The position numbers were made by a program, and so were the translations under genes. 64,000 nucleotides of DNA from contig CM120644.1 of assembly GCA_051362555.1 (NCBI GenBank), forward strand, positions 18,312,534-18,376,533, read 5' to 3'. This DNA comes from Lingula anatina (taxonomy: Eukaryota > Animalia > Brachiopoda). Shown here in pieces: positions 1-55,041 of the stretch (position 1 is its first letter; each line of letters opens with the position of its first letter). The notes below the pieces were generated by a model. It saw nothing but the letters and a program-made list of their open reading frames with translations, did no database searches and was not told the DNA's origin.

Positions 1-728
1 TGTTGCGAAATATATCAAGAAATTTAGAGTACTCATTTAGCGTTAACTCCTCGCTGCAGTCAAGGTCAACAATATGGAAAACATCCAGGGCCCATTCGAC
101 TACTAGATCGCTTGTAAAGCCGACAACATTTTCTTCAGACTTAACCCAGTCCTCAAATACAATAGACGTCTTATAGTTAGTGTATTCATTCGACCACCAT
201 GTTTGAAAGCCCATGGTCATAGCACCATAGACTGCCTTAGCTCTCCAGGATGGCAGTGCAGCACGCTCCGTCGACAAATCGATGTACTCTTCCTTCGTCA
301 CGTTACCGTCTTCATTAACGTCAAAGATGTCAAAGAATTTTTTGTATTTCTTAAGACAATACGGAGTAAAATCTTTGTTGTTACCCTGTGCCACCTGGAT
401 AAAAAAATGTTTATTTCATACTGAAGTGATCTCTAAAAATTAATGTTACTAAAAGGCTACATAAAAGCTAAATTGATTTGAATCAGAAACAATTCGTTAT
501 ATAATTTTGATTACACCATTATGCTAGCCTCTCTGTGTATTGAACTGCATCATAACCTCAGCTGTCATTATAGGCTTTTGATATTTAAGAAGGCTCTCTT
601 TCGAGCACATCATTTTAAGTCGGTTTTGAAAGAAAATTATAAGACTAAAGAATTACCTTCACTCCATATGACGAATCAAAGGTTAGAACAATTGCAAGCA
701 GCAACAGTCCAAATTTGATGGAAAACAT
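1..728 (-). CDS. Secreted aequorin/SCP-like EF-hand protein, copy 1 (3' end runs off the window)
   Basis: Exon 1, 728..657, reads MFSIKFGLLLLAIVLTFDSSYGVK (signal-peptide-like) followed by a GTAATT donor. Exon 2 starts at 394 after CAG and is open to position 1: VAQGNNKDFTPYCLKKYKKFFDIFDVNEDGNVTKEEY...VDLDCSEELTLNEYSKFLDIFRN. Close paralogue of the ORF at 20825..21388. Confidence 0.85.
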
Positions 729-3054
729 TTTTAATTGAATTTGGGTCACACGCTTACCTGTTATTTAAAAAATAAAAAAATCAAAATAACAAAATATGAA
801 TAACACGCTGTTCTGAATTCAAATATAATATTATATATTCAAATTATATATAAACATACATTATTTTCCCAAAGCTTTGTATTTGTAAAATCGCCATAAA
901 TGAACGTCTGCGATAAATTACATTATATCTCTAAGCTAATCAATGCTCACACAGATTACTTGCAGAAACATGTGATTATAACCACCTAGCTACCTTGGCC
1001 CCTAATGGACACCCAAGATCCCCTGATGTAAACTATATTACAAACACGAGGGGATAAATCACTCTCTGATTTAATAGTCCACTGGTACAAATAACAAATC
1101 TGAACGGATAAAGACTGGGAGTAAGACTGACTAGGAGAAAACCTGCCAGAAAGATGGTATTGTCTCTTGAAGAGCGTAACTGCAGCAAGGGGAGTTACTG
1201 GCCCTTTCTCTGACTAGGCAGTTAGTAATCAATTTTCACCCTAAGAGGTTAATTTGAAAAATTAAGAAACCCAGATAACGTATGCAACGGCCATTTTATT
1301 ACTTAAAACAGCCATGTACTTTTGTAATGCTTTACTTACGATTTGAATTCAGGAATCAAAGTCTCGAAATAGGCACTAAATAATCTGTTAGAAGCTAACA
1401 AGACATCCTGGTTTTCTTTGATAATTCAGAAAAGCAGTAAGAAAAATATCTTTGAAAACAGGTCCTTATTAAAGGACAATTCTGTTGTTTACCGTGTGTT
1501 GAAATTGTAATATAGTGTACCAAAACAATCCACAATAATTAAAAAAACCCGAACATGTCTCAGAGCTGCAAGCCGTCTAAAATTCCGTGCAACATGTTTC
1601 TACCGCTAGAAATGTGCAGCAATAAAAAACATGGTAATATTTGTGGCCAATCCTGTATAATTTAACAACTCGTGATAAAATGTCATATGAATATGCAATC
1701 TTACTTCAACTACCCAACACGTCTTCATTTGGACACAGACTTGCAGTAATAATATGTTTTCTGAAAATCGTGTTTCGTACCATATGCTGATACCATACAA
1801 TTTCATATAAATATGCAATTCAAGGTCAACTACCCATCGTTTTCTTCATTTGGACACAGACTTAATTCTCTTCAAAATTATCCGAATAAAGTACATAGAG
1901 GCCATCAAACTGCTCTGTCTACCACTAAACTGTACCAATTCATTGTTTCAACTCAAAGTAGAAATACATGCAGTATTAGTACTTTTATCTGAAAATCATA
2001 TTTGGTACCATATGCTGATCCTTTACCTGTAAAGCTTATGCTCCGAACGCGCCGGTGATTTCTGATAAAAACCTTTATTGTCCTTTGCAGAGCGATGCTT
2101 TATTCTCATCTCATGTGACGCAGAGTATTTCTTCATACTTTCCGTTATTACGCATGCCCATTTTCCCAATAATTTTATTGGATAAAATTGTGACTACGAA
2201 ATGAGTGTCTACATATGTAGGTAAAGACGGATAAAAAAGCGCAGATATTTAATGTTCCTCTCTTACTTTTTGTATTTCTTCCCGTTGCTTTCAGCTCATA
2301 TGGTTTAACTTAGGTGAACTGCTATATTTATATATGTACACTTAATATTTCTGCTGATTCAATCTTTATTATATCACGATTACTTCAGATGTAATCTACC
2401 CCATTGGGAATTAAATTCTAATCATTAATTCTGCGATGGGTTTTCTATGTTTGTTAATATTTACGTAGCAGATAAGTTTGTCATGCGGGCTTCCAACGAT
2501 ATGTTTTTTCTTTATTTATTTTATACGCCATAATACTCATCTGTTTGTAATGGAAACAAGGGCAAAGCTTTCTAAGACTAGAAAGTAAAATTATTTTTTT
2601 GAAAACAGTGGACAATGCATTTAATTATACGTTTGTATAGTGTATGATTATGTAATAAAATCCCAAATGCCAAAAGTCTCTGCCTTTGAGTCTGTATTCT
2701 ACCGAAATAATATAAAATAAACAGAGCAATTCATGTGTCGCACCTAAAACATTCAAACAACGCAGTTCTATATCTCTTGTGGGTGAGAAACAGCACTAAA
2801 AACAACTGCAATGGATCATCTAGCTCCACATGGTGCTTTACGAATTTTGTTTGGATCCATATCAAAACTGGATAACAAATGTTTTGTATGTAGGTCCTTC
2901 TAATCGCAATCAAGCTTTAATTTTCAATTATCTGTTTCATGTAAAGTATGTAAGGCCGTGAACAGTTTAATTGCAAACAAAAATAATATCATAACATTTA
3001 TCACTGGCATTTTCTGTGGTGAATGAGGTTACTATAAGTCAGTCAGCTAGTACA
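1..3054. repeat. Segmental duplication unit A (paralogous to 20971..23886)
   Basis: Collinear high-identity match through the coding exons, the intron and ~2.3 kb of upstream non-coding DNA, e.g. ctcagagctgcaagcc, ttttattggataaaatt, gcctttgagtctgtattctaccg and agtcagctag occur in both copies. Confidence 0.9.
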
Positions 3055-6029
3055 CTTGCTGAGTAAAAGATATACAGCTTTTATAAGTACATATATGTGC
3101 TACATATTACGAAAACCGTGGAACAGGTAGTTTCACTGTAAAGCACGTTGAGCTTGATCTGCAGAAACAAAATCCATGACATTACTGAAATGTATGATAA
3201 TCCCTGTGTAGTTTAATAAATTCGTCATCGACTGGCGCGTTTTCAAGATCTTATTTTCATTTCCTTCAGTGCAAATCTATGATTCATACGGACTGCCAAG
3301 TTCAAAAATTTCAATGCTGCTACTTTTTTCAATTTTTGTATGTTCTCCAATGTAAATTTAATTTTATAACGGGCTGGGAAATGTTATTATTTTGCCAAGG
3401 ATTTGTAAGGTACTTCTGTTTTCACTGAGGTCGTCTTATTAAAATGATGGGATATTTTGGTAATACAGAGATTATCATATATTTCAGTGACCATTAAACA
3501 ATATTCACATTATAAAAGAGAGTAGGATTCCATGAACAATGGAAAATAACTGGTAACTATATATCCTGTAAAAAAACATGAACTTATAGCCCAGTCGCTG
3601 TCAGGCTTTTGGTGTTGCAAGTTATTTCTTTACAGCATATCTGAAAAGTGACATGCCTCGTCGTATAGCCTGAGTAAGAAAGTCTGTGAAACATATGAAC
3701 GCAAACAATCGATATCCTTTGGTGCCTTCTTTCTTGTTATGAATGGGACTATGAAAGTTTGTGGTACACTGGGATGGAGGTGACATAAACAAGAATACTG
3801 CTGTCCATGCCGGAATCACTCGAGGAACTGCCTGTAAGATCACATAGTGCCATCGAAGAGAGCAACACACCCAACCAACCATCAATCATTTTTGCCGACT
3901 CTGTAACTTCAGCCTGGGAGCATCGTATACTCTGGGAGTATCGTCAAAAGGAAACATCCTCGGACAAATTGCTAAAACGTATCCAAGTTTTCAGAGAAAC
4001 AATCGACGCCATATGCAGCCTTTCAATCGGTGACCTTGCCCAAGGAGTCAGATTGAGCTTCGTTACCTGCCCCGACTTACAAGTTTCAAGGCAATATATC
4101 GATATGACTTGCACTGCATATTTTCAGCTCTTTTTGCCCTTTAATGTGTAGTGAATTGACTTGTGTCATATACTACCGTAGCATTGTAATTACATATTTA
4201 TGATGATCTCTTTTCAACCCGCATACGCTTCTGCTACTGGGAATGTATAGAGTAGGAAAGGGGAGGGAGAAATTATATCGTTCGAGATACGGTATGGTAC
4301 TGTTAAAACTGTACAGCCAATAAATGAGGGGCCTCAAATATCCGAATCCATCAGACGTGTTCTGGGCATCTCTAAACATAGGATCAAAAAGGTAAGAAGC
4401 GTGATTTTCAGCAAAGCCATCATGATTGAAAGCAAATGGACTATTTGAATGACACGCTGAAGGTGTTTTGCTACAGGTTTTATATGAGAGCGATTTTAGG
4501 TAAAGACATGGTTCTGTTTTACAACGAAGGAAATGGTGGGTAAATGACCTTAGATAGAATTTTTATACGACATTATTAAGTTCCCATGTGTACTAGTATA
4601 CTACGCGACCACGTCTTACACGTTGCTAGCTGGTACAAAACTGTGGTCTTTCCACATATACACATACCCCTGGTGAAAAAGGAGTATAATTCAACATTTG
4701 AGTTAAACACACGTCAACAGGTGTGGGAGAGTTTCAACAATGCCTTCATATAGTACGCGGCTATGACAGTTAAATCTTGTGCATCTATATAACCTTAAAC
4801 AGAGATACTGCACTGAAATCTGTCAATAATTAAAACATATTTAAATTATCAATGGATTCATTGCATATGGCACCCACATTCAAGTTTACACATATTATTT
4901 TTTAGGTACATTGTTGTATCATATGCTAAGAAAGACCTTAAACTTATCCCTGGAAGGCTAGAAAGCCATTTTAATTTATTTTTCATTTTAATATATGTCT
5001 TTCCGTCTCCATGTTGCACACATTCGATATTCATTCTTTTTTATTATTGAACTTAAGAAATGTAAATTACAGTATACAATACTTCTTTGTTACCCCTCGC
5101 TTACTTCTCTCTCTCACACATACATACATACATACACACATGATGGCTCATCATTTTCATTAATAAATAAGATATTTTGATAAGCACAGCATATTTTTTC
5201 TAACACCTGTAGCATTCGATGTCCCTAGGGACAGATGTCCCCCTTTTTTATTTAGTGTAATTGTAATTTTTTACCTGGGAAATTAATAAATTCAATTTCT
5301 CGTCATTGTTTCCAAGAATAATATCCGATGCAGAAATATGAATATTGACAACCTTTTCTTCCCTAAACCACTTTTCGATTTGCTTCCACAAGTTTTTTTG
5401 CGAGATCACAATCTACGAATAGATGTTCAATAAGGTCGCGCGTCAAGGTTATTTTCAGTTGCACCCTGGATTACGCACGCTTGCTCCGCAAGGTGTCGCC
5501 TGTGGTGGGGGGGGGGGGGCATCACAGCCCATATGGTTACTGTGGCGAAGGTGACAGGTACTTCCAAACATTTTTTCATAACTGTCATTTTTCCTTATTC
5601 TATTCAGGAATTTGATATTTACGGCAATTGAAAATGTGGCACCGGCAAAAGTGAATCTAGGTGCGTTGACAGGTCGCACAGGTGTCCCCAATTAACCGCC
5701 GCCAGAGAAGAGACCCCAAGCATTAAACAACACAACCGGTAGATATTGGAAATTTGGAGAAAGTTAAGCAACTGAGGCTTTATTAGATTTGGACAGAAAT
5801 CGGGGGTAATGCCCAGTGACATGCCAAACCCCTAAGTTCAAGTCTTGGCCCTTGACACCTGTAACGCACCCCTTAGTCAAGAATCTGAACAATTCAATGT
5901 TGGGCAGGTACAGGGTATACTCTATTTTCTACAGGTGTTTTGTGATTTTATCAACTTGATTGTCAAGTGCCAGACCTTTTGTTCTCAGGTACTAGTAGCA
6001 AACTTTATCAGATAACAATCTGACACTAA

Positions 6030-6252
6030 GGCCCCCTTTACACTGGATGGCGTCCCTTCTGCGTCCAGCAGTTCGGCCCCATTTGAGAGTTAAAGAATTA
6101 TAATACTTTACGTGCCGACAACTGGCCGATCATTGAGCATTCATTCTGATACCAAATCAATGCTCGTGCCTCCTTATTAAGACCACAGCGATGCCAAATT
6201 TCATGGTCGCAGAAAGGACGCAGAAAGGACGCCGTCCAGTGTAAAGGGGGTA
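6030..6252. mobile_element. PIF/Harbinger-type MITE
   Basis: Terminal inverted repeats of ~35 bp (ggccccctttacactggatggcgtcccttctgcgtcc / ggacgcagaaaggacgccgtccagtgtaaagggggta), flanked by TAA on both sides. Confidence 0.8.
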
Positions 6253-6979
6253 TAACCAAGCTGCACTAACAGCGCTGTAAACCCAGTTATCAATGCTGTC
6301 ATCTTTACCTGTATCTTTACCGGTATTATGCCAGTGGTACTGTTTGATACATTTGAGTAAGGAAATATGCTTTTATGCTTACATTCATTTGTAATACGTT
6401 AGCATCAACCTGTTAATAAAAACTTGGAAACTTTCAATGTTATTACACAATAACAGTATAATGATGGGAGATGTTATGATTAAATGCTTAGAAGAATAAT
6501 AAAAACAAATTATGTGAAATATAAAATGAATTGATTTTATTTGGGTTATTTATTTATTTATTTCAAACCAATTAATTATCAAACATGAAGCTTATTTTAA
6601 GAAACATTCGAATATATATGAAATATAACCCTGCTGGTACACAGATCTACAGTTCTAAAATGCAAATACCAAGTACCTTTCACACACCACTGATGAGATG
6701 TGAATAATCATATGTATAAAGTGGTAAAAATATCACAAAATGTGTGTAAGCAAGATATTTCTACAAGTAACCTCATTAATCAGTCAGGAAACTTCATAAT
6801 GCACCCAATAAATGTAGAAATTTGAGCCAGAGAAATTCTACATACAGGCATGACAGATTTACCATATATTGCCATCAACCCTTAACTGAATGGGCATAGA
6901 AAGAACAAAGTGAGTCTCCCTCCCATTAAAAATGAGAAATAAAAATAAATAAATAAATAACAGATACTGTCATTCTTAA

Positions 6980-7300
6980 TACTGAAAAACAATGGCACCT
7001 TGCAGCCTTCACTGCCTCACTATTTGCAGACAATGTTCTAGTCACTGTAACTGTGTACTTTTGATGAGGCATAGATGCAAGAATAACTTCTTTGAAGTAT
7101 ATTGTGAAGGTCTCTTTTGTCATAAATCTGCCATGTATAACCTGAATGAACATATTGCGATTCACACCGCAGCAGCTTGTCTTAGTAAGGACTCAACCAG
7201 TTTGAAAACTTGTGGCATAGCTTCAGGGACAAGATCACACCATCTATCCTTGCTGTGATGATGGATCTACTAGTACATTATCTATGTCTTGTCCTCCTAG
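6980..7300 (-). mobile_element. Degenerate transposon-derived SWIM zinc-finger-like fragment
   Basis: FKEVILASMPHQKYTVTVTRTLSANSEAVKAARCHC resembles the V-x-A-S-M...Y-x-V-x-V...A-x-C-x-C lead-in to SWIM fingers of DNA-transposon accessory ORFs. It is truncated after CxC, with stops upstream. Confidence 0.35.
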
Positions 7301-8309
7301 TTTCTCTAATACCATTTCCGCTGATCTATATGCTCACATCAATCTCTACAGCTTTACCAACTGCTACACAGTTTTTACATCTCAAAGTATAAAGCAAAAA
7401 TTGTAATAAAGCACTATCAATTTACTCGTTAGCTATTGATTCGAGGGCAAGAGAAAAATGCAGAAACCTCATATGATAATCAAGATAATTGAAAATCAAA
7501 TATGCATAATCAAATTAATAGCTTTAATTGTACATACTACTGATGATTTAATCTTTAAAACTTCAGCATAAATTTCTCTTGTTAAAGCATAGACACTTTA
7601 TTAAAATGTGCTTGAACAAATAATAATAATAATAAACAACCTGCACACAAGATGGAACATGGAGGTCAATTGCCACAAAATAAGTTGATTTGTACTTGGT
7701 AGCCTGAGAAATAGTATCAGGTATTAATTTTAGCAGTAAATTGAGTAATAATACCACAGAGTTAACAATGACACAAGCATATGGTGTTGTGTAACAAAAT
7801 TCATGCATTAAATTACTTGCTGTGGCAGTGTCCTCCCCAACCTATCGTGCACCGCAGGTTTTGATTTTCAATGTCATCAAAAATGTTTATTGTTGTTAGT
7901 TTGATTTACGTATCTGCTATTCAAATAATATCGTTTGGAAAATAACTAACTCATTTAATTATGCTTTTGCAACATGAAATCATCATTAACTTTGCCGGTT
8001 CACGTGTATACAGTACCTTGCTATCAGTGCTGCTCTTTTCTCCCTAACTCGTCACTGACAGGCTAACCACATCGTTTCATAACAACGCTGGTATGCTCCT
8101 TTACTTTTGGTGTTGGCAGTTTCGCCCCGGGGACATCGTTTTTGGTTAAAAACAACGTATCGTTTTCACCCATCTATACATTGCTCCTGTACAAAATGGC
8201 CGCTTGCTGCCCCCCCCCCCCCCCCCAAGGGAAAAATCGTAGCACGTGGGTAGTTACGCAAGACCTGTGACGTATAACGCGCGCAAGGTTATTGTTTCCA
8301 TCCTTGTGC

Positions 8310-10182
8310 TACATAAATTGCAATGAGGATTATCAACTATTTTATATTTGAACAGTAAGTATTTTGTCCCTAGATTTCTATGAATACATCTTAACTTAAA
8401 CCATCTGAGTTTGGATTATTTTATATCTGTCAGGAGACGATTGTAGCCAAGATTTAATGTTATTGCTTTATTAAGGAACCTTTCCCATTTTATTTCATTT
8501 TTAAGGGTTTCGTAGAGTTTTTTTTATATAAACGTATCATAAATCGCTTTACAACCTTTTTTTGTTTTTCCATATAACCATAAGCGGTTTGGGTATTTTC
8601 AGGTTATAAGTTTTCTGTGTACCAGTTATTTCTTTTAAATTGGGAAATGCATTATAGATAGCATTTCTTAGGCCAAAATATTTTGTAAATGGGAGGCGTA
8701 TTTTGTATGCATCCGTGATTTCTCTATATGAAAGCACGTTGCCGTTTGGATCAAGCAAGTCGAGCACCACCCGGAAACCTTTCTCATATAATGGTTTTAA
8801 GAAAACGGCCTTGTTTTCGATAAAAATACTCGGATTATACCACAATGGAGCTTCCAGAAAATCTTGTGGGTCATTTTCCTGTATTACGCTAGCGTACTGT
8901 GAGTAATATGAAAATCATTTTTTCCAAAATAAATTTGTCGTGGTTTCCCCGCATTGTTTCGCATATACAGGCCCAAACTGGCAGAGCGACGTCGTGTCAC
9001 AACTTGTAATTTCGGTAAAAATCTTTCCATATTGGTTAGTATTCGATAGTAATCTGCGAATCCAAGTTAATTTTAAAGCTTTAATACATGATTCTACAGG
9101 TAAATGCACCATTCTACAGCACCCATTTTTGAAGTCTTGAATAATTGTCTTTCTCGATACCCTTTCATTTTTCCCATGCCAAATGAATTTGAAAAGAATA
9201 GAGTTAAACTCTTTTATCCATTGGGCACTGGGACCTGGTAGTGACATGAACAGATGAGTAAACTTTGGTATCAGTAGTGATTTAACCACCGTTATTTTTC
9301 CTAGGGTGGATAGATACCTTTTTTACCAGTTATTAATCTCATTTTTTGATGACAGCCAACTTTATATTATAATTGCGTTCTTCTACACAATCAAGTTCAG
9401 CTGGAAAGGTAAAACCTAGAACAGATACAGATTCATTTGCCCAGTCTAATTTTTCGTTTCTACACAGAACTTTCTTACTATTGATTTTTGAGCCAATCCA
9501 TACTGCTTTTGTTTTGTAAATATTTGGTTTTAAGCCGGAATATTTGGCAAACTGGAACAAAAGGTCTAATGCACTTTTAAGCGATTTCTCTGAGCCGTCT
9601 AAAAATACCACTGTATCATCGGCATATTGTAATAATTTTATCTCTTCTCTTGCTATACCAATTCCTCTTATGTTTTTTCCTGTCTTACATGAATACCTAT
9701 TATTTCTGCGCATAAATTAAATATATATGGTGATGCAGGGTCACCCTGTCGACACCCTCTGCCTATTTTAAAAAATCGAGAGAAAATTCCATTCTATATG
9801 ACACACAGTTCTGCATTTTTATGAAGGATTTTAATCCACCTAATAAGGTCATTTCCAAAATTTAAAAATTCTAATGTTATGTAAATAAAAGACCAGGATA
9901 TGCTATCAAAAGCTTTTTGAAAATCAATAAGTAAAATAATACCTGGGATTTCTTTGACTTTTGTATATTGCAGAACGTCATACAGGATTATGATGTTCTT
10001 TCCTATATACCTCCTATGTACCTCCCCTTTAAAAAGACCTTCTGATTTTCGTGAATTAAAAATTCAATAACAGATTTTAACCTATTAGCAATACACGAAG
10101 AAAGAATTTTATAGGGAGATCGGCCTCCAGTTGGTCAGAAATTGTCTTGGGTTGTCACCTTTCGGTAGTATAGAAATAATGA
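8310..10182 (-). mobile_element. Degenerate non-LTR retrotransposon (L1/Tx1 clade) reverse transcriptase fragment
   Basis: Broken ORF2 carrying NWRPIS, IDFQKAFDSI, GRGCRQGDPASPY, LLQYADDTVVFL, SGLKPNIYKTK, LFKFIWHGK and WYNPSI. Multiple frameshifts and stops; truncated at both ends. Confidence 0.92.
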
Positions 10183-10869
10183 GTATTCATTCTTTACAAT
10201 ACCAGACATTTTACTGCGTACAACCTGTAGAGTTATAAACTGTAGAGTAAAGGCAGTATTGGCAACAACTCCTCCATATCTATACTGACTGTGACAAACG
10301 TGATTTATTTATTTATCTATTTATATATTTATTTATTTATTTTGTAAACTCAACAAACCTGTTTTTTGGGTCTGTTTATGACACTTCTCTTGTGGTTGCG
10401 TATTGCAACAATTATATTGTTGGTTCCCTTAATTCCCCAAACCTCAATGGCTTTCAAAAACAATGTCACCCAGCCGATGGTAACCTTTTTAACAGTGCTG
10501 AACCGATTGATTCCCCGCTTATTGTCACAAATTGCTCCTTCTCTGCTATATTTTATAGGTGGATTTTGTTGCTATCTTTAAAGCCCCTGGTGACCCCCCC
10601 CCCCCAAAAAAAAAAAAGATTCATAGCAATGCTGTGAGTTTTATTGCAGTTTTTCTCTCCAATTTCGAAGATGTCTTTTTTTGTACATGGAATCTTGAGA
10701 AAAACTTGTGCTTAACCCTCTTGGATCACATATTCCCACATCCAAAGGTGTAGTCCGGTGGCTTAAGGAAAAAATCGTGACACGGCGGAAAAAAACACCA
10801 AATTTGGCATGTAGTTATCTTTTGACATTCTAAATCAAATCAGAGCCGTAGCCCTCTCAAACAATTTAC

Positions 10870-12370
10870 CGTTTGGTCAAAAAATCCAAAATGGCCGCCA
10901 ATTTATGGAATTCTATAGAAATATGTACATACCCATGTTGATTTTTATCAAATAAATTATTTTCTCAGAGTTTTCCACACCCTAATTACCCATTTTATTC
11001 ATATATGTCAGATAGCAAACAAGTTACCTTGGACTTTTTGAAAAAAATCCAAGACGGCTGTCATATACCATAGAAACAGCCATAGGACTACTAGTGCACA
11101 ACTAATACCAGCTAGAAAGATACGTTGTCCACTATCAAATTAAGTCTGTTTCTCAGATTTTTGTTACCCACATAATATGTTTGTGGTGAGTAACTACGAA
11201 GTGTTCTTGGGCATTTTGGAAAATCCAAGATGGCTACCATGTGCCGCTGGAATTCTAGTATACGGGGGATTCAACTAATGGCAACTGGAAAGATTAATGT
11301 TCCACTATCGAATTAAGTTTGTTTCTGAGTGTTTTCCACATCCTTTCCACCCACACAATATGTATGTGGTGAGTAACTAACATGTATTCTTGGGCATTTT
11401 GAGAAAATCCAAGATGGCCGCCATATGTCATAGGAATTCTTCTAGTATTACAAAGGGTAAGAACTAATGCCAGCTAGGAAAAACATAATTCACTATCAAA
11501 TTCAGTTTATTTTTTCAGTGTTTACACATTATTATTACACTGCGATACATATCTAGCAGGTAATAAATGTGTATATTTGATCATTTTGAGAAAATCCAAG
11601 ATGGCCGTCATTGGCCATAGGAATACTACTGGAATTACAACTGCACATCCATGGTTTTTCATCTACTACCAGGGTGAAATTGTGTTTGCTTATCAAGTTT
11701 TGTCCATCCTTATTAGTCATATGATATATATCTGGTGGTTAAATAGTGTGCATCCTTGGATATTCTGAGAAAATCCAAGATAGCTACAATTTGACATAGG
11801 AATACTAATGGGTGGGTTTCAATTGCTGCTAGAGAGGCATGTGGTTCATTATACAATTACATTACCATGGGTTTGTTTTAAAAATAATTTACGTTTTGCA
11901 TTCCATTTATTATTACCCCTATGATGTATACCTCATCTGTAAAGCATGTTTGTATCTTTGGGTATTCTGAAAAAAAATTCAAGATGTCTGCCTTTTGTCA
12001 TTAGAATATTCGTACACATAATCAAATAATGCCAGAGATACACTGAGTACAATTTAAATATAGTTAACTTTAGATGGTTTTTAAATTTTTTTCCTTTCAT
12101 ATCCTATTTATCCTTATGAAAGACAATATGTGTGTAGAAAGTGTATCCTTGAGTACTATTCGGAGAAAACCCAAGATAGCCTCCAGTTGTCATCGGAATA
12201 TATCATTCAAATGCACATAGGTGTCAATTAATGGAACGGTTCAGAAATGAAATAAAGCCGTTTGATGTTCAAACATGTTGACATCCTTATTAACCTCACT
12301 CTATATAAATCTGGTGTGAAGCAAGTGTGCATCTTGCGTATTTGAGAAAATTCAAGATTGCTGCAATTCA
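10870..12370 (+). repeat. Diverged tandem array of about nine ~185-bp units, each with an AAAATCCAAGATGGCCGCC-like core
   Basis: Core motif at about 10880, 11043, 11221, 11405, 11591, 11770, 11973, 12167 and 12347. Units degrade towards the right. Probably the internal repeats of a non-autonomous transposon. Confidence 0.8.
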
Positions 12371-12616
12371 CAAGTTTTTTAGAAGTAAATATTATTTTTT
12401 TCTGGAAATTTCCTGGGACTGAAATTTGAACAAATCTGTTTTATTGGAAAGGCTTTTTCCAACAGTAGACCGACAAGTATTGATCACAACGGTAGGGAAA
12501 ATGTACAGGTCTTATTATTCATCTTCCCGCTGTGTTTAAAAGGGATATTAAAACCATTCATGTAAGTATTGTTTAATTTTAATCCTATGATCTGGTTACT
12601 TTAATTTTCTTTCTAG

Positions 12617-14688
12617 ATATGCCATCAAGGCGGTTGGCCTTTTAACGTTTTTGGGTTTGTTGGCCTACCTTACCATCAACCAGAAAAATGCCCTTTCTTA
12701 CATGGCAAACATTTTGCCAGAAACCAAACAATCGGGCGAGGGCCTAAAATTGAGCTATAGAGTCTTCATGGGATTACCCAGAAACCTGACCTGTGACAGA
12801 TGGGTTGTTGTGGATGCAGGAAAACATGCTTCCGCCCAACAGATTGAAAAAGTGTCTGATAGACTACATTTTCCCTGGTGCGCTATTGTAGTCTCAGATA
12901 CGTTAACATCGTCACGTTCTTTGCATGTCATTTTACCAAATAAACAAAATGGCATAATATACGTAAATGGAGTGACTGAATACAGCAGTCTTTTCAAGTC
13001 CCCAGTGAGTAGAAAAACGATCGGCTACTTGTTTGCTATAACCAGCGGAGCGACTATGATCTATGACGACGATGGAGGAATGGGATATGAATGGTTGGCC
13101 TCTAGTCCACCCCTTGATAACATAAGTACTGAGGTTCCTCTCGTTATACCAGCAGGCAAAGTGAACTTTTGGAACCCTTTTTCATATTTCTTCTCTAGAA
13201 GTGATGTCTGGCCTCGAGGTTTCCCAGGAAACATGGCCAATCGTCCTGCCTGCAGTGCTCCGCCGGTGCCATACGCATTGCGTAATTCGAGCGTAGTACT
13301 TGTGCATTATCTCATAGATGGGTATGCCGATGTGCCGGAAGAACTTCTCAAGTCGCCATTGAAATTCGACAAATCAATCATTGGTCCAGTGGAAGTGCAA
13401 GAAGGCACATTTGTTCCCTATAGCCAGCATTCAACGCTACATATGTATGATGCCTTTTGGGGACTGCTAGAACCCACTACATGTCAGGAATCGATATCTG
13501 ATATTATTCGTGGTTATATCACTCAAAGACTGCTGTGGGATATTAACGGCAGCATGTCGGTCTCGCCGCCCTGGACAAAGAGAACAAACCCATCCCGTCA
13601 AACACTGGGGAAAAGCTCTCAAACTTGTAACAAAACTCTTATAGAAATAGTCAATCACTTAATGGCGTGGTCCAGCAAGTCGCCATCAATTGATGCGAGG
13701 TTAAAAGAATTGTATCTACATTTATTCGAGAAAGGGATCATTTTGAAACAAGATCTGGTGCTATTAGACATCTGGATAGAGTTGTTGACGGCCGTTGAAT
13801 ATGTCTTCCCGCGAATCCACGTACCAAGCTGGGCTGAAAGAAGGCCGATGGCCAAACCCTGGGACGGTGTAAGGTTGTGTGTTCATTTCAATCATGTCCC
13901 CAACATGCAAGCATTTACAACACTGTATCAAATGTACAGTAGACATTTTAAAGAAATAACATTCACTGGGGAAGGTACTAGGCAACCGTTTATGGACCCA
14001 TTTTCTGCCCTGTAATGATCAAGAAGGTGGCATTTTTCTGCATCGTTGTCTTCCTAAGCACTTAACGTATGGTGGGTTTGGGAACAATAGCACGCCATAT
14101 CTTTTTGTAAGTGATGATACCTTTTTCAATCTTTCATCCTTTTTGTCCTATCGCCGGGATGTTCTGTGGATACTGGGACCTTTAGAAACACTGGACATTG
14201 ACGTCACGTGGCCAGATGGGTGGCCTTGGTGGCCATTGCCGTACGTTGGCGCCGCACTGAGGAAAATCATCGATATTCTGCCTGGAGAATGGAGGGACCA
14301 CTTGGCCCTCGTGAAAAATTGGACACAATCAGGAAAACGATTGATTTCTAGGTATAACGCAGATACTGTATTCATTCCAAATAACCAGTACAAAACACGT
14401 TTTATAGAAGTTTTGAAATGGTTGATGGGACCGAACATGCCACGATTATTTGCTGAAGTCGCCACGCCATTGCTAGTTGACCTAATAACCACCGAAAAGC
14501 CGGACCGACCTGATGTCATTCCATTAAAAAACAATTATCCACATAATGGTCGCAATATCGCACTAAAGGCGCGGTCATGCAATTTACTTCATCCTTTAAA
14601 GTTGTCCAAGGAAGAGGATAGGCTTATTTGGCTGTCCATGTTTAAGAGTGTGGAAACGATTTTACAGACGCCTCCATTGCTGAACTGA
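12617..14688 (+). pseudogene. STELLO/DUF288-like Golgi glycosyltransferase-family gene with an internal frameshift (pseudogene or assembly error)
   Basis: N-terminal TM segment (AVGLLTFLGLLAYLTI) after a TAG acceptor at 12614-12616. STELLO motifs RKTIGYLFAITSGATMIYDDD, WNPFSYF..VWPRGFP, GTFVPYSQHSTL..AFWGL and DIIRGYITQRLLW. ORF1 stops at 14015, but the shifted frame continues from ~14002 (FLPCNDQEGGIFLHRCL...YLFVSDDTFFN) into ORF 14143..14688. The start codon was not resolved. Confidence 0.8.
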
Positions 14689-14799
14689 AAAAAATTTAAG
14701 ATGAATTAGATTGGCAATGCCAATTATATGGTATTTGGCCAGAGCTTTTACAGTGTGCTTGCATTTTACATGCTGCGAACCACCAGGTTCTCTATGGCA

Positions 14800-15496
14800 T
14801 TACTATCTCTGCAGATTAACTAACAGGCCATTTACATTGTGTATTATATAATAGATGGGCCTTTATTGACAGAAAGTTTTTTATCTATCATCCCTGACGT
14901 CAACTCTTGTATATGAGACATCAGATAAATTGCCTCGACCAATAGCCTAAGAGACGCCAGAACATGGCCAGACGTCATTAGAATCGAGATGTATTTGATG
15001 GAGAAGTTCATTATTTGCTATACCATATCGATTGTCGAATGTGAGCCCGTCGATAATTTGGGGGAAGCCTGTTGGGAGAGTATGTGCAGGGAAATATCAT
15101 CAAAGTGCTGGATCAGTCCACGTTTAAGGTGCAGGCCATGTTCATGGTTTTTTGAAAATCGTTCATTCCGGAACAGAGCGTTAATTGCGCCATAAAATTT
15201 TTGCAAATATCTCACTATTTGCAAGAGGTGACCTCAGCAATGTTTACAAATTCCATCATGACAACGGCCTTGCTCACAGCTCTCGGCTTTTGGTTGAGTT
15301 GTTGCAGAAAGAACATTCTGGGGTTTGAACAAGCATCTTTGAGCTCGAATACTAATTCTATTAAGGAGCTGAGGGATGATTCCCAGTGCACAATGCAGGG
15401 AAGAATCATCTCCCTAACAACCTGAAATAACTCTGCCAAGCTGTTATGGAAGAAAGGGATAGTATCCCTCAAAACTGACCTGCTTGTTGGATGCAA
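14800..15496 (-). mobile_element. Highly degenerate LINE relic (SGNH/esterase-like ORF1, CR1/L2 type)
   Basis: IVHW...LIELVFELKDACSNPRMFFLQ...VN...C...HGLHLKRGL resembles the SGNH ORF1 pattern (IVHxG...RIFF...DGLHL..G). Stops and frameshifts throughout. Confidence 0.4.
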
Positions 15497-17612
15497 TTAT
15501 ATCTGCAGATTTGCATATATAATTGCAGTGCCTCATCGGATCGCATGCTACTAGAAACGTGTATTTTGATGCTTATTGTGTATCGATTTGTATGCATTAA
15601 GCGGTGTTTTAAAATTTTGATTATTATTTTTACTTTTATGGAAAATTACTGTGGAAGGCTTTATTTGAGGGGTTGCATGTTCTTAATTTGAATAAATGAA
15701 GATAATATAAATATCTTCAAAGAAAATTGGGCTTTTTTAACCTAAAGTCATCTCCAAGTTGGTTGATGGAACAAAAAATACTAATCAGAACGGTTTACAG
15801 CTGACATGTGATTATTTGTAAACAAACGCACATCAGATTGAAGGTAGAACAACTCAAATGAGCCTGAGTGAGTCATCCAGCCGTTTCGAGGATATGCGAC
15901 TATAAAATATTTGCCCAAGGAAGCAAAATATAACCGTGCAAGAGTATATTGGATCTAATGTAAAACAAGTCATATCATTTTGAGAAAAATTAAAAACGAA
16001 ACATTTATTTTATCTTTTTACTTGCGCAGACAATTAAAATTATTAATGTTATTTAAAAACTAATATATAGTGCTAATTTTCCACTCTGTCTACTGTAGAC
16101 TTCCAGTAATTTATTATAATGTTATATTTCTCTATGATTTTTTATAAATGCAATGTATTTGTAGAACAGTTGCTGTTCAGGGACGACATCGATTCCATAT
16201 CTGCCACAGGGGCCAAATGCCAGGTGTAGATATGCTTTATTCACCTATTTATAACGTTCGTATTTAAGAATTCTTCAGAGCCATTAGTCGCCAAGTTTTT
16301 GGTAAAACAAATAACCATGCGATTCGTCCATCACGACTTAAGGTGTTCACTATTGCTTTATCAAAGAATGTGCCTTTTCAATTAACAGGCGTTCTTCAAA
16401 AGCAATTAGGTCACCAGACACCACACAAAAACACATAGGCTAAATACAATATGGCCACACGATACTCCTTGGTATATTGGAACTGGCCTGGCTATTGGGT
16501 CGGCTGAGTAGGAACTTTTGTACAGACTTGACATTTGATATGGAATATTTCAGTTTCAAAGGTATACCTAGGTAAAAATGTGTTCTTTAAAAAAACATTC
16601 GATCTCATATAAGATATGTGACTGGAGTAGTGTGTAGTCAGGTGTGCAGCTACCAGATTCAGATTCAGATTCTTTATTGACAAACACCTTCACATAAAGG
16701 TACAATCAATTACAATACTAGTAACTATAACGTAGAACAGACAAATAAATAAATAAATATATAGATAGATTAGCATATGGTTGACCAATTAACTGATTAC
16801 CTTGTCTGTTGCGCTGCTGCATTGTGTACTATACAGTGATTTAATTGGATAGTGCGCCTTTGGACTGGTCAAAGCTTGGCATTAGCAAGGCATGATTCTG
16901 TCAAAAAGAGAATCCATATGTCGGTATCTACTGCATAAATTTAAATTTTGCATGTAAGCGGTCGGTTTAGCATTGCGAAAAATGAGCTATGCAGTATTTT
17001 ACAAAATTGTTAACCTGTGGCAGAATGACAATAAAAAGACAGACATTGCCAGACAGATCATTGCGCCAAACGGAGCGGTCAACACGGTTTTATGGAGTAA
17101 TTCCCAGACTGATGTACCTACATAGAGGCCACACCCAATGCATCGAAATCTTACCACCAGGGTACAGGACTCGCTGTCTTTCGAGATATGCTGCTGCAAC
17201 TAAACAAAAACCACCCAGTGCGTACAGAGGGAGACATGCATATGAGACAGGATGATTTAATGCTTAATTCTAAGATATACGTCATATACCAAGGAAACAG
17301 AAAATGTAATGGTTAAAAACGATATAGGATGCCTTTTTGTCTTCATTTGTCTGACACAGCCCCCAGGAAAATCAACAAATAAAGAAACGAACCAATTTAA
17401 AACGTTGAAACTGAAATCCTTCTTCCTGTCAAACCACCACTGTATAAAGTACATGTCAAGGTGTTCTTTATCTAAAACACAGTAACAGTGCGCCAGGATG
17501 CTGAGAGGCAACAGATAAGCAAATACATTTACATTTCAAAAGTTCAGAAGTTAATATGCAATCTTAAACCAAAAAGGTCATGGCCAAAAATTAAGTGTAT
17601 ATTATCACCCGC

Positions 17613-18157
17613 TTAATAACGAGCACCAAAAAGGACATCAGAGGAGCTGGCCTTTTGATCAGCCCAGTAGCCCACGAAAGCGTCTATGAACTCGTTGGTA
17701 TCAATCACATCATCCTCATTCCAATCAATGACATCAAATATATCTTGAACCTTAGCGGTGTTACGGAAAATAGTAAGGAAGTTGGCATACTCACTCATCT
17801 ACCATCAATTTGCCATCGCAGTCGAGATCAAGCACGTTAAGCCAATCTTTTGCATTTTTGATGATCTCTTCTCTTGTAATAGGGATTTATTTCAGCCTCT
17901 TCAGACCGAAGCATTTCTTGAAACGTGAAGGATTTTGGATAGTTGGTGTGTTCCTTTAACCACCACAGGTGAAAGGCACTGTACAATATACCATTCACCG
18001 CCATGACTCGCCAAGATGGGAGAACTTGCTGAGCCCTCTCTGTTGTTGAAACGACATATTCCTCTTCATTCACCATGCCATTGCCATCAACGTCCATGAT
18101 ATCAAATAATTCTTTGTACTTGGAAACCCAGTGCTCGCTAAAGTTTCCTTTGGGGCT
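17613..18157 (-). pseudogene. Aequorin/SCP-like EF-hand protein, copy 2 (divergent pseudogene)
   Basis: SPKGNFSEHWVSKYKELFDIMDVDGNGMVNEEEY...LPSWR...WW, then a frameshift near 17885, then AKDWLNVLDLDCDGKLMVDE, then a 4-bp GAGT duplication at 17789-17796, then YANFLTIFRN...IDWNEDDVIDTNEF...YWADQKASSSDVLFGARY*. Confidence 0.85.
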
Positions 18158-19277
18158 CTAAAATTTAACACAATACTATAAAACAAACATGACGTAGACG
18201 CGACACAACTGCAAATGGCCAAACATTGCTTATTGTTCACCCTAATTTTGTTTGTTTTTATAGCAGGACCTTACTGCTAAATCACTGCGCCAAACACCAA
18301 TGACCAAGTGATTCGCGTGGTTTCACGCTTTTTTCGTTTATCAAATTGTCCCTTGAATTTTATCCTGCGCTATTATCCTGTTATATGCTTTACAAAATGT
18401 ACTTTGTGTTTCTTATAACATATTTGACCCCTGTCCTTTAACTGCCGCACTTTGTTGTCCCTTTGCTGTTTACAGTAGCCGTTTACGATTCTTGCAGACA
18501 CCCAATTTAAAGTAGTCTAGCTTCTTAAAACATTCAAAATTCGTACCTTTACCATTTTCGAAGAGCAGATAGTTGGAACGACCATAAGAAGGAGCAGAAC
18601 TTTCAGATTGTTTGAGGACATTCTTATATGAATTCTGTATTGTTAAGATTTCTAAAACAAAAGTAACAAACAATTTAAACTATACTTAACAATATTGTGT
18701 GTTATACAAATTTATATAACACCTTTCATATAGAAAAATTATTATTGCTTCACTTTGCATACGTAGGAAACTAGATTTGAAATCTGCAGTTAGCCATAAA
18801 TAGTGTCTGTATTTCGGTAGGTCTATATGTGTCTATGTTTACAGCACACAAGCAGTACAATATCATAAGCTATATATCGTCGACCAACTGAAATTCCAAT
18901 GTTCGTGAACACTGGATCTTAAAGCTGTCGAAATGATTAAAGTTGCTGACGCCTTAGATGCAGACCATATCCTTCAATATGTAATTCTATTTTAGCTTTA
19001 CTTACCAGATGTCTGTTGTTTCTCTTAGAACCCAGACTTATGTAATGTTTTGTTTCAGTGAACGTGGTATACTTTGAAACAATCGTTTCGCAATATTGTC
19101 GGGATGAACATTTTCAGTCACTAGGATCCCCTATTCGACATGTTACCAATCCCGTGACACCTCCATTTTAAAGGCATACATTTGTATTTCTGGATGTAAA
19201 CATCAGACTACATTTAATACGGGCTATGAGACTATCCTGTTGTCAAACCAATCGTTAAAGCAGATTGTCTCTTTTGT

Positions 19278-19378
19278 GATAGATAGATAAATAGATAGAT
19301 AGATAGGCACACACACAGACACACAAGCAGTCAGACACTAACAGATGAATCACTTTATGACAGACAGACAGACAGATG

Positions 19379-19414
<36 letters not shown>

Positions 19415-19415
19415 C
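19278..19415. repeat. Compound GATA/GACA/CA microsatellite
   Basis: (GATA)n, (GACA)n and (CA)n tracts. Confidence 0.9.
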
Positions 19416-20824
19416 CAGAGATGAATCACTTAATGAACTGCATTCCTAAGCCGTTTTTATAACCACGCTTTATTGTTAATACCACAGGGCAACAGTACTT
19501 TTCTGAGTGATTCACGTGGTTTCTAATCGCTGTCAGAGTCCCAGTAAAGCAAGTCCGTCATATTGGACTTCCTTGGGGCTTAATATAATAAGTTTATTTA
19601 TACAAAGCAACGAAAAGGTTGAAGGTGTCCATGAACTAGAGAAGACTACACATCACCACCTAAAATATTTACAAAATATGTACAAAAGAGCTAAATGAGT
19701 TCGAAAATATATAAAGCATAAATATCTAAAAGTTTGATAAATGTGGCTATGATAAATGACATGCAATAAAGATAACTTCCCAGAAAGAAAAACACAGATC
19801 ACTTAAATTTTGATAAAGAAAAGGAATGAAGGTGTTTTAAAACGTTTGGTTCTGAATTTTGGTACACTATATTTTGACTGGTTATGCCTTTTTTCCTGTG
19901 TGGTTTGCAAGTAAATAGGTAATTCAGCTTATCTCCGTCGTTTTCCTTTTTTTCATTTTCGCAAATAATGATTCACAGAGCTCTATCATCCATCATCTTA
20001 AAATGTAAACATCGAACTTTATTTCATATAGGCTACCAAGTGACAAAAGCAGCTCATTATGCTGTCAGGCATGCGAAAGACATCGACAGCTGAATTAAAA
20101 AAATAGCTTACGCTAAAAGATTGTGAACCATGTGTTCTTTATCATAACTTTTTCCTTATATACAGAACAGTTGTACGCAAAACAAACTCATGGATATTTT
20201 GAAAGGTCAGAAGAGGACGCTAGGAGCCATCTACTGGGGATATTGAAATAGGTGGATTAACTATAAAAGACGTATTAGTTACACGAGTAATATTTATACA
20301 TATACTAGTGTAGACACTATAATCAGCGGAAATACTCGACCAGCTTACATTTGCATTCTTAATTTGGTCCAGCAGTTTGGGAATTTGCTGACACATATTT
20401 AAAAAAAATGGCATGCTTCTATAATAAACACGTTACGTAATGTATATTAATTTAAAGCTTTTTGTGCTGTCAAGACAGTCGATTGCAATGTGAAAACACA
20501 ACGATGAAAATGTTTGGACGTTAAAATTTAGGATACATATTTTCTCGTTTGCTCTCTCATATAAAAAATAATTCTGAATGAAAATAAATAATCCAAAGAT
20601 AAAAGAATGGTATCCATTTATTCAAATACCCTGTACACTAAATATGACTCAAAGCAATTTGAATGCTTGAAGCATTTACTTGAAAAAAATTAATTGAATG
20701 AAAAATGATACACTTCTAAAGGGGTTATGTTTTTAAAATAAATACAGTGTGAAATATCAGAAAAGTCATCCCTCAACCAAAATTAAATTGATATCTATCG
20801 ACTTGCTTTTTCGTCAAATCCTTT

Positions 20825-21640
20825 TCAATCTCGAGAGCCATAAATATATGCAGCGGAGTTGGCTGCTTGGTCGTGGGAAAAATGATTTACCCCATAGGTG
20901 AACTCCTGAACATCAATGACGTTATCACCATCTCTGTCAATGACATGGTAAACGGCTCTATTATTCGCCTTGCTGCGAAATATATCAAGAAATTTAGAAT
21001 ACTCACTTAGCGTTAAGTCCTCACTGCAGTCGAGGTCAATAATATGGAAAAAATCCATAGGCCATTGGAAGTCTCCTTGCATATCTTTTGTAGAACCGAA
21101 AACCTTTTCAACAGCCGGAATCCAATCCTCAAATGCAATAGACGTCTTAAAATCGGTGTATTCATTTGACCACCAGATATTATAGGCCATGGTCATTACA
21201 CCATAGACTGCCTTAGCTCTCCAGGATGGCAGTGCAGCTCGCTCTGTCGACAAATCAATGTACTCTTCCTTCGTTACATTACCGTCCTCATTGACATCAA
21301 AGATGTCAAATAATTTTTTGAATTTCGTAATCCAATACGGAGTAAAATCTTTGTTTTTGTCCTGTGCAAGCTGGATAAAAAAAATCATTTTAAATTGAAG
21401 TGATCACTAAAAATTACAGCTTCTGAAAGGCTACGTAAAAGCTTATATTAAATCGATTAGAATCACAAACCGTCATTATATGCTTTTATTATTTAAGGAA
21501 GCTCTCTCCGATTTCGAGCACATCATTTTAGTCGGTTATGATAGAAAAGTATAAGACTAAAGAATTACCTTCACTCCATATGACGAATCAAAGGTTAAAA
21601 CAACTGCAAGCAGCAACAGACCAAATTTGATGGAAAACAT
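20825..21640 (-). CDS. Secreted aequorin/SCP-like EF-hand protein, copy 3 (205 aa, 2 coding exons)
   Basis: Exon 1, 21640..21569, reads MFSIKFGLLLLAVVLTFDSSYGVK with a phase-0 GT donor. Exon 2, 21370..20825, follows CAG. EF loops are DVNEDGNVTKEE, DLDCSEDLTLSE and DRDGDNVIDVQE, with EF2 lost (the EF1/3/4 pattern of photoproteins and SCPs). The C-terminus is YIYGSRD. Confidence 0.9.
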
Positions 21641-23886
21641 TTTATTGAATATGGGTCACACACTAACCTTTAATTTAAAAAAACAAAAATAAAATGAATA
21701 ACACACTGTTTGGTATTCAAATACAATACAATATATTTAAATTATATATAAACGCACATTAGTTTTCCAAATTCACAGTTATTCATTTCTAGCATTGTTT
21801 TTATAAAATCGCCATAAATTAACCTCTACAATGAATTGACTCTAAGCTAATCAATGCTCCTTCACACAGATTACTTGCAGAAACATTGAGCAGCTAGCTA
21901 CCCCTGTACCTTGTCCCCTAACAGGGACCCAAGATCCCCTGATGTGAACCCTATTTAAAATATGAGGGAATAAATCATCATCTGGTTTAACAGTCCGATT
22001 AAGACTTGGAGTGAGACCGACTAAGAAAAAAAACCTGCCAGAACGATAGTATTGTCTCTTGAAGAGCGTTACTGCAGCAAGGGGAGATACGTACTGGTCG
22101 TTTCTCTGACTAGGCAGTTACTAATCAATCTTCACCCTAGGAGGTTAATTTGGAAAATAAAGAAAACCAAAATAACGTATGCAGTGGCTATTTTATTACT
22201 TAAAACAGGAATTCAGGAATCGAAGTCTCAAAATAGACACTAAATAATCTGTAAGAAGCTAACAAGACACCTTGGTTTTCTTTGATAATTCAGAGAAGTA
22301 GTAAGAAATATATTTTTGAAAACAGGTCCATATTAAAGGAAAATTTTGTTGATTACCGTATGTTGCAGTTGTAATAAAATGTGCCAAAATAACCCACAAT
22401 AATTTAAACAACCCGTGGTTGTCTCAGAGCTGCAAGCCATCTAAAATTCCGTGCAACGTGTTTCTACCGCTAGAAATGTGCAGCAATAAAAAATATGGTA
22501 ATATTTGTGGCCATTCCTATATAATTTAACAACTCGTGATACAATGTCATATTAATCTTACTTCAACTACCCATCACTTCTTCATTTGGACACAGATTAA
22601 ATTCTCTTCAAAATTAGCCGAATAAAGCACATAAAAGCCATCAAATTGATTTGTCTACCACTAAACTGTACCAATCCATTGTTTCAACTCAAAGTAGAAA
22701 TACTTGAATACTTGCAGTAATAGTACTTTTTCTGAAATATCGTACCATATGCTGATCCTTTGCCTGTAAAGTTTATGCCACGAACGCGCCGTTGGTTTCT
22801 GATAAAAGCTTTATTGTCCTTTGCTTTAATCTCATCACGAGTGACGCAGAGTATTTCTTCATTCTTTCCGTTATATTGCGCATGCCCATTTTCCCAATAA
22901 TTTTATTGGATAAAATTATGACTACGAAATGAGTGTCTGCATATGTTGGTAAAGACAGATAATAGGAATATTTATTGTTCCTCTAGCTCTTACTTTTTGT
23001 ATTTCTGCCCATTGTTTTGAGCGCATTTGGTTTAACTCCGGTAAACTGCTATACATATTTAAATATGCACACGATATATTTATTCTGATTCAATCTTTAT
23101 TATATAACGATTATTTCAGGTGTAATCTACCCCATTGCGACTTTAATTCTTAACATTAATTCTGGGTCGGGTTTTTCTATGTATGTTAACATTTACGTAG
23201 CAGATAGGTTTGTTATGCGGGCTTCCAACAATATTTTTTTCTTCATTTCTTTTATACGCCATAATACTCATCTGTTTGTAATGGAAACAAGGGCAAAGCT
23301 TTTTAAGGCTAGGAAATATTTTTTTAGCCGGTATGCTAAAAATGAGTTAGGGTAAATGACTTACATTTCGTTGGCTTTAAGCATTTCTTTTAATGTGATA
23401 GATGTTTTATGTTCATTTGACCACCACACTTTGAAAACAGTGGACAATGCATATAATTATACGTATGCATAGTGTATGATTAGGTAATAAAATCCCAAAT
23501 GCCGCCAGTCTCTGCCTTTGAGTCTGTATTCTACCGCAATAATATAAAAAAAATTGTGCAACACCTTTTGTCGCACCTAAAACATTCAAACAATGCAGTA
23601 CTATGTGATCTCTCGTGGGTGAGAAAACAGCACTAAAAACAACTCCAATGGATCATCTTGCTTTACATTGTGCTTTACGAATTCGGTTTGGATTCATTTC
23701 AAAACTGGATCACAAATGTTTTGTATGTAGGTCTTTCTAATCGCAATCCCCACTGTCTGCCTTGTGTGCAGTATGTATTATAGCAATGTACAGCTCTAGC
23801 GCAAATGAAAATTATGCTATAACATTTATCATTAGCATTTTCTGTGATTAATGAGGGCACGTTCTTTGCGTCAGTCAGCTAGCACA
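20971..23886. repeat. Segmental duplication unit B (paralogous to 1..3054)
   Basis: Position 20971 (tgctgcgaaatatatcaaga) aligns with position 1. Homology ends at tcagtcagctagcaca. This copy has a ~105-bp insertion near 23326-23430 that unit A lacks. Confidence 0.9.

Positions 23887-33188: not shown

Positions 33189-33241
<53 letters not shown>

Positions 33242-34557: not shown

Positions 34558-34608
<51 letters not shown>

Positions 34609-55010: not shown

Positions 55011-55041
<31 letters not shown>

Follow-up and report, generated by a model that had tools for sequence, protein, structure and literature searches.

Why should a tandem cluster of genes coding for EF-hand proteins begin, in every copy, with a separate exon for a hydrophobic leader, and what would such proteins do once outside the cell? 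The question is raised by a stretch of 64,000 nucleotides of the brachiopod Lingula anatina (contig CM120644.1, positions 18,312,534 to 18,376,533, forward strand), hereafter the window, which carries three genes of the SCP/aequorin fold (SCP, sarcoplasmic calcium-binding protein), all on the minus strand and all three with their own leader exon. The initial annotation of this DNA had described three minus-strand paralogues with EF1, EF3 and EF4 loops and without EF2, a layout that was borne out by residue mapping and by the structure model, both of which place EF1, EF3 and EF4 loops, and no EF2 loop, in the window copies. The reading that we favour, with a probability of roughly 0.4, is that the proteins are exported homodimers which likely hold a small hydrophobic cargo in their central cavity and in which calcium is likely a permanent structural ion and not a trigger. 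The clade to which they belong is real, expressed and likely secreted.

Copy 3 is the intact representative. The coding part of its leader exon (21569..21640, minus strand; 72 nucleotides, or 24 codons, with a GTAATT donor), a predicted signal peptide, is followed by a phase-0 GT-AG intron of 198 nucleotides with an AG acceptor (21371..21568) and by an EF-hand exon of 181 codons (20825..21370) which includes EF1, EF3 with an invariant cysteine, EF4 and a helix-C motif of the predicted dimer surface. Joined together, leader and EF-hand exon form an open frame of 205 amino acids. Seven same-species RNA runs (X1, X2, X4, X5, X7, X8 and X9) were aligned, and seven reads from X7 and X9 skip exactly these 198 nucleotides, from leader to EF-hand exon, a splice that corresponds to the junction from 21569 to 21370 expected from the initial annotation.

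Copy 1, also on the minus strand, has a leader exon with a coding part of 24 codons (657..728), almost the same as that of copy 3 and again a predicted signal peptide, and a phase-0 GT-AG intron (395..656) homologous to that of copy 3; its EF-hand exon (1..394) keeps the frame across an acceptor at 395/394 and is truncated by the window edge at base 1. The same leader is fused in frame in the RefSeq models P0002/P0007 (203 amino acids), which are 98% identical to copy 1 over the EF-hand exon. The exact joint predicted for this copy, from 657 to 394, was not among the joints listed, and there it is the RefSeq models with the same join that speak for it; four reads in that list use the same donor with a joint 9 nucleotides shorter, which probably comes from a paralogue. 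A further joint near copy 1, from 733 to 2007, was discarded as its splice ends are not clean. Near position 361 (minus strand) copy 1 encodes a Cys at the helix-A Trp position, where P0002 has the Trp shared by nearly all of the clade, which suggests an allele or a sequencing error.

A leader had first been noticed only in copies 1 and 3, where it proved to be in frame in both; copy 2 has one as well (coding part 18547..18621, minus strand, 25 codons, a predicted signal peptide), connected to the EF-hand exon by nine X7 reads, and in addition a non-coding first exon running from 19006 upward, whose GT-AG 5'-untranslated intron (18652..19005) is spliced in eight X7 reads and one X1 read. The EF-hand exon of copy 2 (17613..18157, minus strand) is 84-96% identical to the intact RefSeq models P0008 and P0170, and its frame is broken by two 4-nucleotide tandem duplications, at about 17885 and 17789, both absent from the RNA reads (X7 and X9) and from the RefSeq orthologues. 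The copy 2 found here is likely a broken allele.

A decayed fragment of a fourth copy, comprising the end of helix C and the EF2 region, lies at 23364..23447 on the minus strand (tblastn within the window, E 8e-5). About 500 nucleotides upstream of this relic at 23447, a 55-codon open reading frame (ORF; 24042-23875, minus strand) has a strongly hydrophobic, Cys-rich, leader-like start, and may represent the leader exon that belonged to the decayed copy, or else a small secreted peptide in its own right. Copies 3 and 1, together with their upstream DNA, are part of a duplicated block (20971..23886 matching 1-3054 in self-blastn, 79-85% identity).

Transcription of the family is patchy across runs. 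Reads on the EF-hand exons were found in X7, X8 and X9 and, over the stretch of copies 2 and 3, as only two reads in X1; coverage of these exons was nil in X2 and X5, though X2 reads a neighbouring gene at up to 54x. The zero reads of X4, which offered no control stretch, are not a test of expression.

The leaders behave as signal peptides would. A chance control over the minus strand of the whole window returned 29 candidate exons (ATG start, stop-free, phase-0 G|GTR end, 18-30 codons), and the four with a hydrophobic core (hydropathy score KD8 of at least 3.5) are exactly the three leaders, one of them counted with two donors. A KD8 of at least 2.8 is reached by all three window copies and by 15 of the 23 RefSeq models of the clade; among other SCP-fold proteins, 5 of 53 reach even 2.4, and two of these merely through helix A. 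Eight clade models are leaderless: one is marked partial, another is a fusion in which the leader lies internally, and three start only with the final three codons of the leader and therefore look 5'-truncated. With a mean pairwise identity of 32%, the leaders are still hydrophobic over about 22-25 residues, carry 0-2 Arg and present small-residue (-3,-1) sites by heuristic. Hydrophobicity maintained over a diverged sequence is the behaviour of signal peptides. The leader dN/dS (ratio of nonsynonymous to synonymous rates) between copies 1 and 3 is 0.17, on only three changes, and the leader has a pLDDT (predicted local distance difference test) below 50 in the full-length structure model. The leader is very probably a cleaved signal peptide and the protein secreted, and the claim of secretion made at the outset is supported as likely by the hydropathy counts, the minus-strand control and the low leader pLDDT.

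Two proteins outside the clade have leaders of the same kind: P0149, an SCP-fold protein from a metagenome, which both trees place outside the clade, on a long branch and without close relatives, and P0160, the Lingula 'clytin isoform X1', whose isoform X2 lacks most of the leader. Export of the SCP fold may thus have arisen more than once, and we do not claim such a leader as unique to Lingula.

Homologues were collected by searching 1.84 billion representatives with a profile and by two word searches, with genome-wide counts taken from RefSeq proteins. The clade comprises 23 Lingula RefSeq models, automatically named obelin-like, aequorin-2-like or SCP-like, and every named close homologue is from Lingula anatina; neither the profile nor the word searches, in which other brachiopods and phoronids are perhaps thinly sampled, returned a member from another named organism. 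A first tree recovered a clade of 13 rows with support 95/94, and a larger one a core of 22 rows at SH-aLRT 98 within a group of 25 rows at 93, just outside of which the leaderless SCP-like proteins of Lingula branch. By these sequences the family amounts to about 20 paralogues and is Lingula-only so far as sampled. Conservation was counted over 20 core domains. The incomplete window copies 1 and 2 were left out, as were P0007, a near duplicate, the aberrant model P0012, and an outer subclade without the cysteine described below (P0051, P0080, P0159 and P0177). A feature search of the ESM Atlas gave matches of 0.88 at most, which serve as leads only.

The mature protein was modelled with a pLDDT of 91, and its structural matches are Nereis SCP (Z 17.9), Renilla coelenterazine-binding protein (CBP; 17.6), juvenile hormone (JH) diol kinase (17.2), calexcitin (16.4) and okadaic-acid-binding protein 2.1 (OABP2.1; 13.9), with photoproteins at 13.4-15.9 and sequence identities of 11-24% over all listed fold matches. 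The nearest fold is tied among the first three. An SCP-type fold is thereby predicted with high confidence, as had been proposed from the sequence, and membership in the SCP/aequorin-fold EF-hand superfamily follows from the four-EF-hand model with an EF2 devoid of a calcium loop. A single-sequence search of PDB ranks obelin best (E 1e-5), and a search with a profile Nereis SCP (E 6e-12).

Like the SCPs of Nereis (2scp; root-mean-square deviation (rmsd) 2.9 over 168 residues, about 17% identity), amphioxus (2sas) and Pinctada (Pf-SCP, 9l5m), the Lingula proteins have eight helices and an inactive EF2; unlike them, they add a signal-like exon, an EF3-loop cysteine and a helix-C motif that is conserved. 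SCPs are expected to bind two to three Ca2+ at high affinity, and the putative sites of the clade are canonical EF1 and EF4 loops and an EF3 that lacks Gly6 in 15 of the 20 core domains. Renilla CBP (2hps; rmsd 2.6, 171 residues aligned) and sponge OABP2.1 (4wri; rmsd 3.1, 172 aligned) are non-catalytic holders of small molecules with the same fold, but share 14-18% identity with the family, and the calcium-triggered release of such holders would be unlikely at extracellular calcium. Calexcitin and JH diol kinase, at 11-15% identity, also have this fold, which in the kinase serves catalysis on a lipid-like substrate. CBP, OABP2.1, calexcitin and JH diol kinase are, so far as is known, all intracellular. 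So are SCPs, with Pf-SCP placed inside mantle cells in the available text of PMC12542302, whereas the Lingula family is predicted to be exported; given the spliced hydrophobic leader, it is likely not a classical cytosolic SCP. The EF I, III and IV layout is shared with photoproteins (obelin, aequorin, clytin, mnemiopsin), whose catalytic and substrate residues are mostly missing from the family. Mollusc shell proteins of the Hdh-SMP5 type are likewise secreted, acidic and equipped with EF-hands (PMC10741955, in the part available), but measure 134 amino acids against about 203 here, and none was found among the homologue matches that could be named.

Could the cavity nevertheless serve a light reaction? 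Photoprotein positions were mapped through HMMER alignments with an obelin pocket list from the accessible portion of PMC10095345. At obelin His22, Trp92, Tyr138, His175 and Trp179, copy 3 has Phe, Val, Phe, Val and Ser; over the 20 core domains His22 is kept in 2, Trp92, Tyr138 and His175 in 0, Trp179 in 11 and Tyr190 in 2, and all 20 carry Phe where obelin has Tyr138. No His occurs in helix C of copy 3 to stand for His64, although the register is uncertain, and there is no C-terminal Pro. Neither the substrate-binding set nor the Tyr138/His64 water-proton relay of photoproteins thus appears to be in place, and the closeness to photoproteins and the luciferin role suggested initially found no support. 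The N-terminal motif and YG tail offered as photoprotein marks do not discriminate either: the Lys of W..K..F is present in 35 of 37 non-clade SCP-fold proteins and the YG tail in only 2 of 20 clade domains. The idea of a 'Ca2+-gated' carrier is doubtful in turn, since calcium is millimolar outside cells and would keep the canonical EF1 and EF4 loaded. In an exported protein, calcium would more likely stabilise the structure as a fixed ion.

The remaining elements of the favoured reading concern the surface and the cavity. When two mature copies were modelled together, the dimer score was 0.49, against 0.02 for the best of three controls, with 100% contact agreement between runs and a pLDDT of 80. 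In calibration, 21 of 30 microbial pairs and 0 of 23 single chains passed the mark for calling a dimer; for eukaryotes the figures were 17 of 29 pairs (7 of 16 for animals) and 0 of 30 singles. The interface is formed by residues 48-61 and 102-115, and conservation there is above average (p 0.047), in particular along the helix-C stretch (48-61; p 0.019); the helix-C motif is present in 19 of 179 stored proteins, all 19 of them in the clade. The model gives a homodimer built on this conserved motif slightly better than even odds. At the interface edge lies Cys115, position 4 of the EF3 loop, which all 20 core domains have and none of 39 other rows has, and which is the sole mature Cys in 16 of the 20. 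It would be available for disulfide bonding with a second chain or with a matrix protein.

The positions equivalent to the obelin pocket are mostly hydrophobic and more variable than other hydrophobic columns (1.57 vs 1.11 bits, p 0.029), a contrast weakened by an alignment of roughly 20% identity, by the relatedness of the sequences and by uncorrected p-values. Variable pocket positions combined with a fixed dimer surface would fit, tentatively, a repertoire of carriers, and the small-molecule carriage proposed initially is plausible. As tandem members of an expansion of some 20 paralogues, whose hydrophobic leader exon spliced onto the EF-hand exon would likely direct export, the proteins might each hold a different ligand. 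Odorant-binding proteins and lipocalins, in which paralogues differ in ligand, offer a loose analogy. A bolder form of this idea, which we consider rather doubtful, would make the family Lingula's own set of extracellular binders of small molecules, the invertebrate answer to lipocalins and odorant-binding proteins. Some 20 homodimers, secreted and stabilised by calcium, would share one unchanging dimer surface and a reactive Cys, with pockets that diversify and capture pheromones, pigments or algal toxins.

Several points weigh against exported, cargo-holding homodimers. Of seven eukaryotic dimers that had no older solved relative, only one passed the mark, and the dimer result may therefore reflect memory of solved relatives; the run was made without calcium and without the clade alignment. 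The helix-E half of the interface (102-115) is not conserved (p 0.49), and the 25 best contacts include no Cys115-Cys115 pair that would mark an intersubunit disulfide. Crystals of Pinctada SCP contained monomers (PMC12542302, as far as its available text goes), and the top fold match is a plain calcium buffer. The leader call comes from a hydropathy heuristic (KD8) with small-residue (-3,-1) sites. RNA reads match the window at 85-95% identity, and would therefore come from other populations or from paralogues and back the splice pattern of the family, not the window alleles. P0002 and P0007 differ by one residue; RefSeq models are probably in part uncollapsed haplotypes, which makes the count of about 20 approximate. 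Export and ligand carriage are predictions from sequence and model.

A secreted calcium shuttle or buffer of the mantle, shell-forming or coelomic fluid, that is, an extracellular version of Pf-SCP handing calcium to phosphate, is a rather unlikely explanation. It would suit the SCP as nearest fold (Z 17.9), the canonical EF1 and EF4 loops and the net acidic charge (about 31 D+E vs 18 K+R), and the loss of Gly6 might tune EF3 to higher calcium. Pf-SCP has been implicated in mantle calcium transport, in which it gives calcium up to carbonate (PMC12542302, in part), and EF-hand domains occur in every lophotrochozoan shell proteome compared in the portion of PMC13425148 at hand. However, the 54 Lingula shell proteins on the whole sheet S1 of PMC13425148 include no family accession, and its supplement likewise gave 0 matches to the accessions and to six peptide motifs of the family, so that the biomineral matrix role advanced at first is not supported by this one Lingula shell proteome (0/54). 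The Lingula proteome of 2015, in the text available, names no such protein, and its gene ids could not be mapped (PMC4595640). Moreover, read depth on the family is at most about 17x across the aligned runs, and a buffer has no obvious need of 20 diverged paralogues.

The features could also be read as those of a secreted protein-binding or cross-linking factor of mucus, pedicle adhesive, egg coat, gamete recognition or defence, acting through the dimer surface and the free Cys and not through the pocket. The invariant lone Cys and the conserved surface motif would serve such a function, and a fast turnover of paralogues, visible in the broken allele and the relic, patchy expression (EF-exon reads in X7, X8 and X9; two in X1) and a dN/dS of 0.68 over mature residues 59-110 vs 0.19 over 1-58 are in keeping with it; yet no dN/dS exceeds 1, and we hold this explanation to be quite unlikely.

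That the leader instead sends the protein to an internal compartment (endoplasmic reticulum (ER), Golgi, granule lumen, membrane anchor or mitochondria) as a calcium buffer has a precedent in clytin2 of Clytia, whose mitochondrial presequence, described in the available part of PMC4043110, is a targeting leader on this very fold, the only one found described among photoproteins, and the nearest case of its retargeting. It is improbable for leaders of this length with a strongly hydrophobic core, few Arg and small-residue sites, and a KDEL-like or other ER-retention C-terminus is found in 0 of the 20 core domains.

Finally, a secreted calcium-regulated photoprotein or luciferin-binding protein, which the RefSeq names, the single-sequence match to obelin and the Z of 17.6 with Renilla CBP would evoke, is very unlikely because the catalytic and pocket residues of obelin are mostly replaced; the profile ranks Nereis SCP first, and we know of no report of Lingula luminescence.

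The exported carrier that we prefer has, to the extent of the open-access literature (subscription journals not being covered), no published description: neither the Lingula family nor an SCP bearing a signal peptide was found there, nor a paper in which 'signal peptide' and 'secreted' occur along with 'aequorin-like' or 'obelin-like', in agreement with the initial suspicion of an undescribed family. Secreted plasma calcium-binding proteins exist in Biomphalaria and were not among the systems compared. The available text of PMC3570280 sets photoproteins, CBP and Nereis SCP next to one another and does not mention a signal peptide, and an immuno-proteome of tick saliva lists an SCP-like match with no tie to a signal peptide in the part accessible (PMC4099483).

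The window also carries other genes and repeats. Between copies 1 and 2 lies a broken reverse transcriptase of the long interspersed nuclear element type (8549-9716, minus strand; RVT_1, E 5e-9). Two GT-AG joints at 7380-8017 on the minus strand, from 7380 to 8017 (4 of 4 runs; 101 reads in X5) and from 7702 to 8016 (3 of 4 runs), with no ORF of at least 100 amino acids, suggest an unannotated spliced transcript or repeat-derived exons. A heavily read repeat at 5600-6500, with strand-switching joints near 6100-6216, resembles a transcribed inverted-repeat element, and an imperfect tandem repeat with a period of about 173-360 bp and RNA reads extends over 10946-11806. At 12591-14688 (plus strand), two overlapping ORFs of 474 and 242 amino acids in different frames, with a frameshift near 14000, have a membrane-anchor-like start and no Pfam match; they are read at up to 54x in X2 and barely in three other runs, and presumably resemble STELLO/DUF288 glycosyltransferases. 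Further along, a RING/B-box/coiled-coil exon and an NHL-repeat exon make up a TRIM-NHL-type gene (28458-35921, minus strand), and glutamine amidotransferase exons (53685-54182 and 54066-58458, minus strand), with an exact 131-nucleotide duplication (53685-53815 = 54052-54182), belong to what we take to be an asparagine-synthetase-like gene.

The SCP/aequorin fold has repeatedly come to hold small molecules, according to the available part of a review (PMC5754374). It has given rise to light-producing enzymes, to a store of luciferin, to a protein that soaks up a toxin and to a kinase of a hormone, each of these intracellular as far as found. The finding is less surprising in that secreted EF-hand proteins as such are familiar, and the RefSeq names 'obelin-like' and 'aequorin-2-like' are misleading for these genes. 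Were the calcium shuttle the true role, the family would be a candidate for phosphate shell formation in Lingula. If the favoured reading is true, the family would be a lineage-specific expansion recruited to the cell exterior by the gain of one exon, and its members would be natural secretable scaffolds of a fold much used in biosensors.

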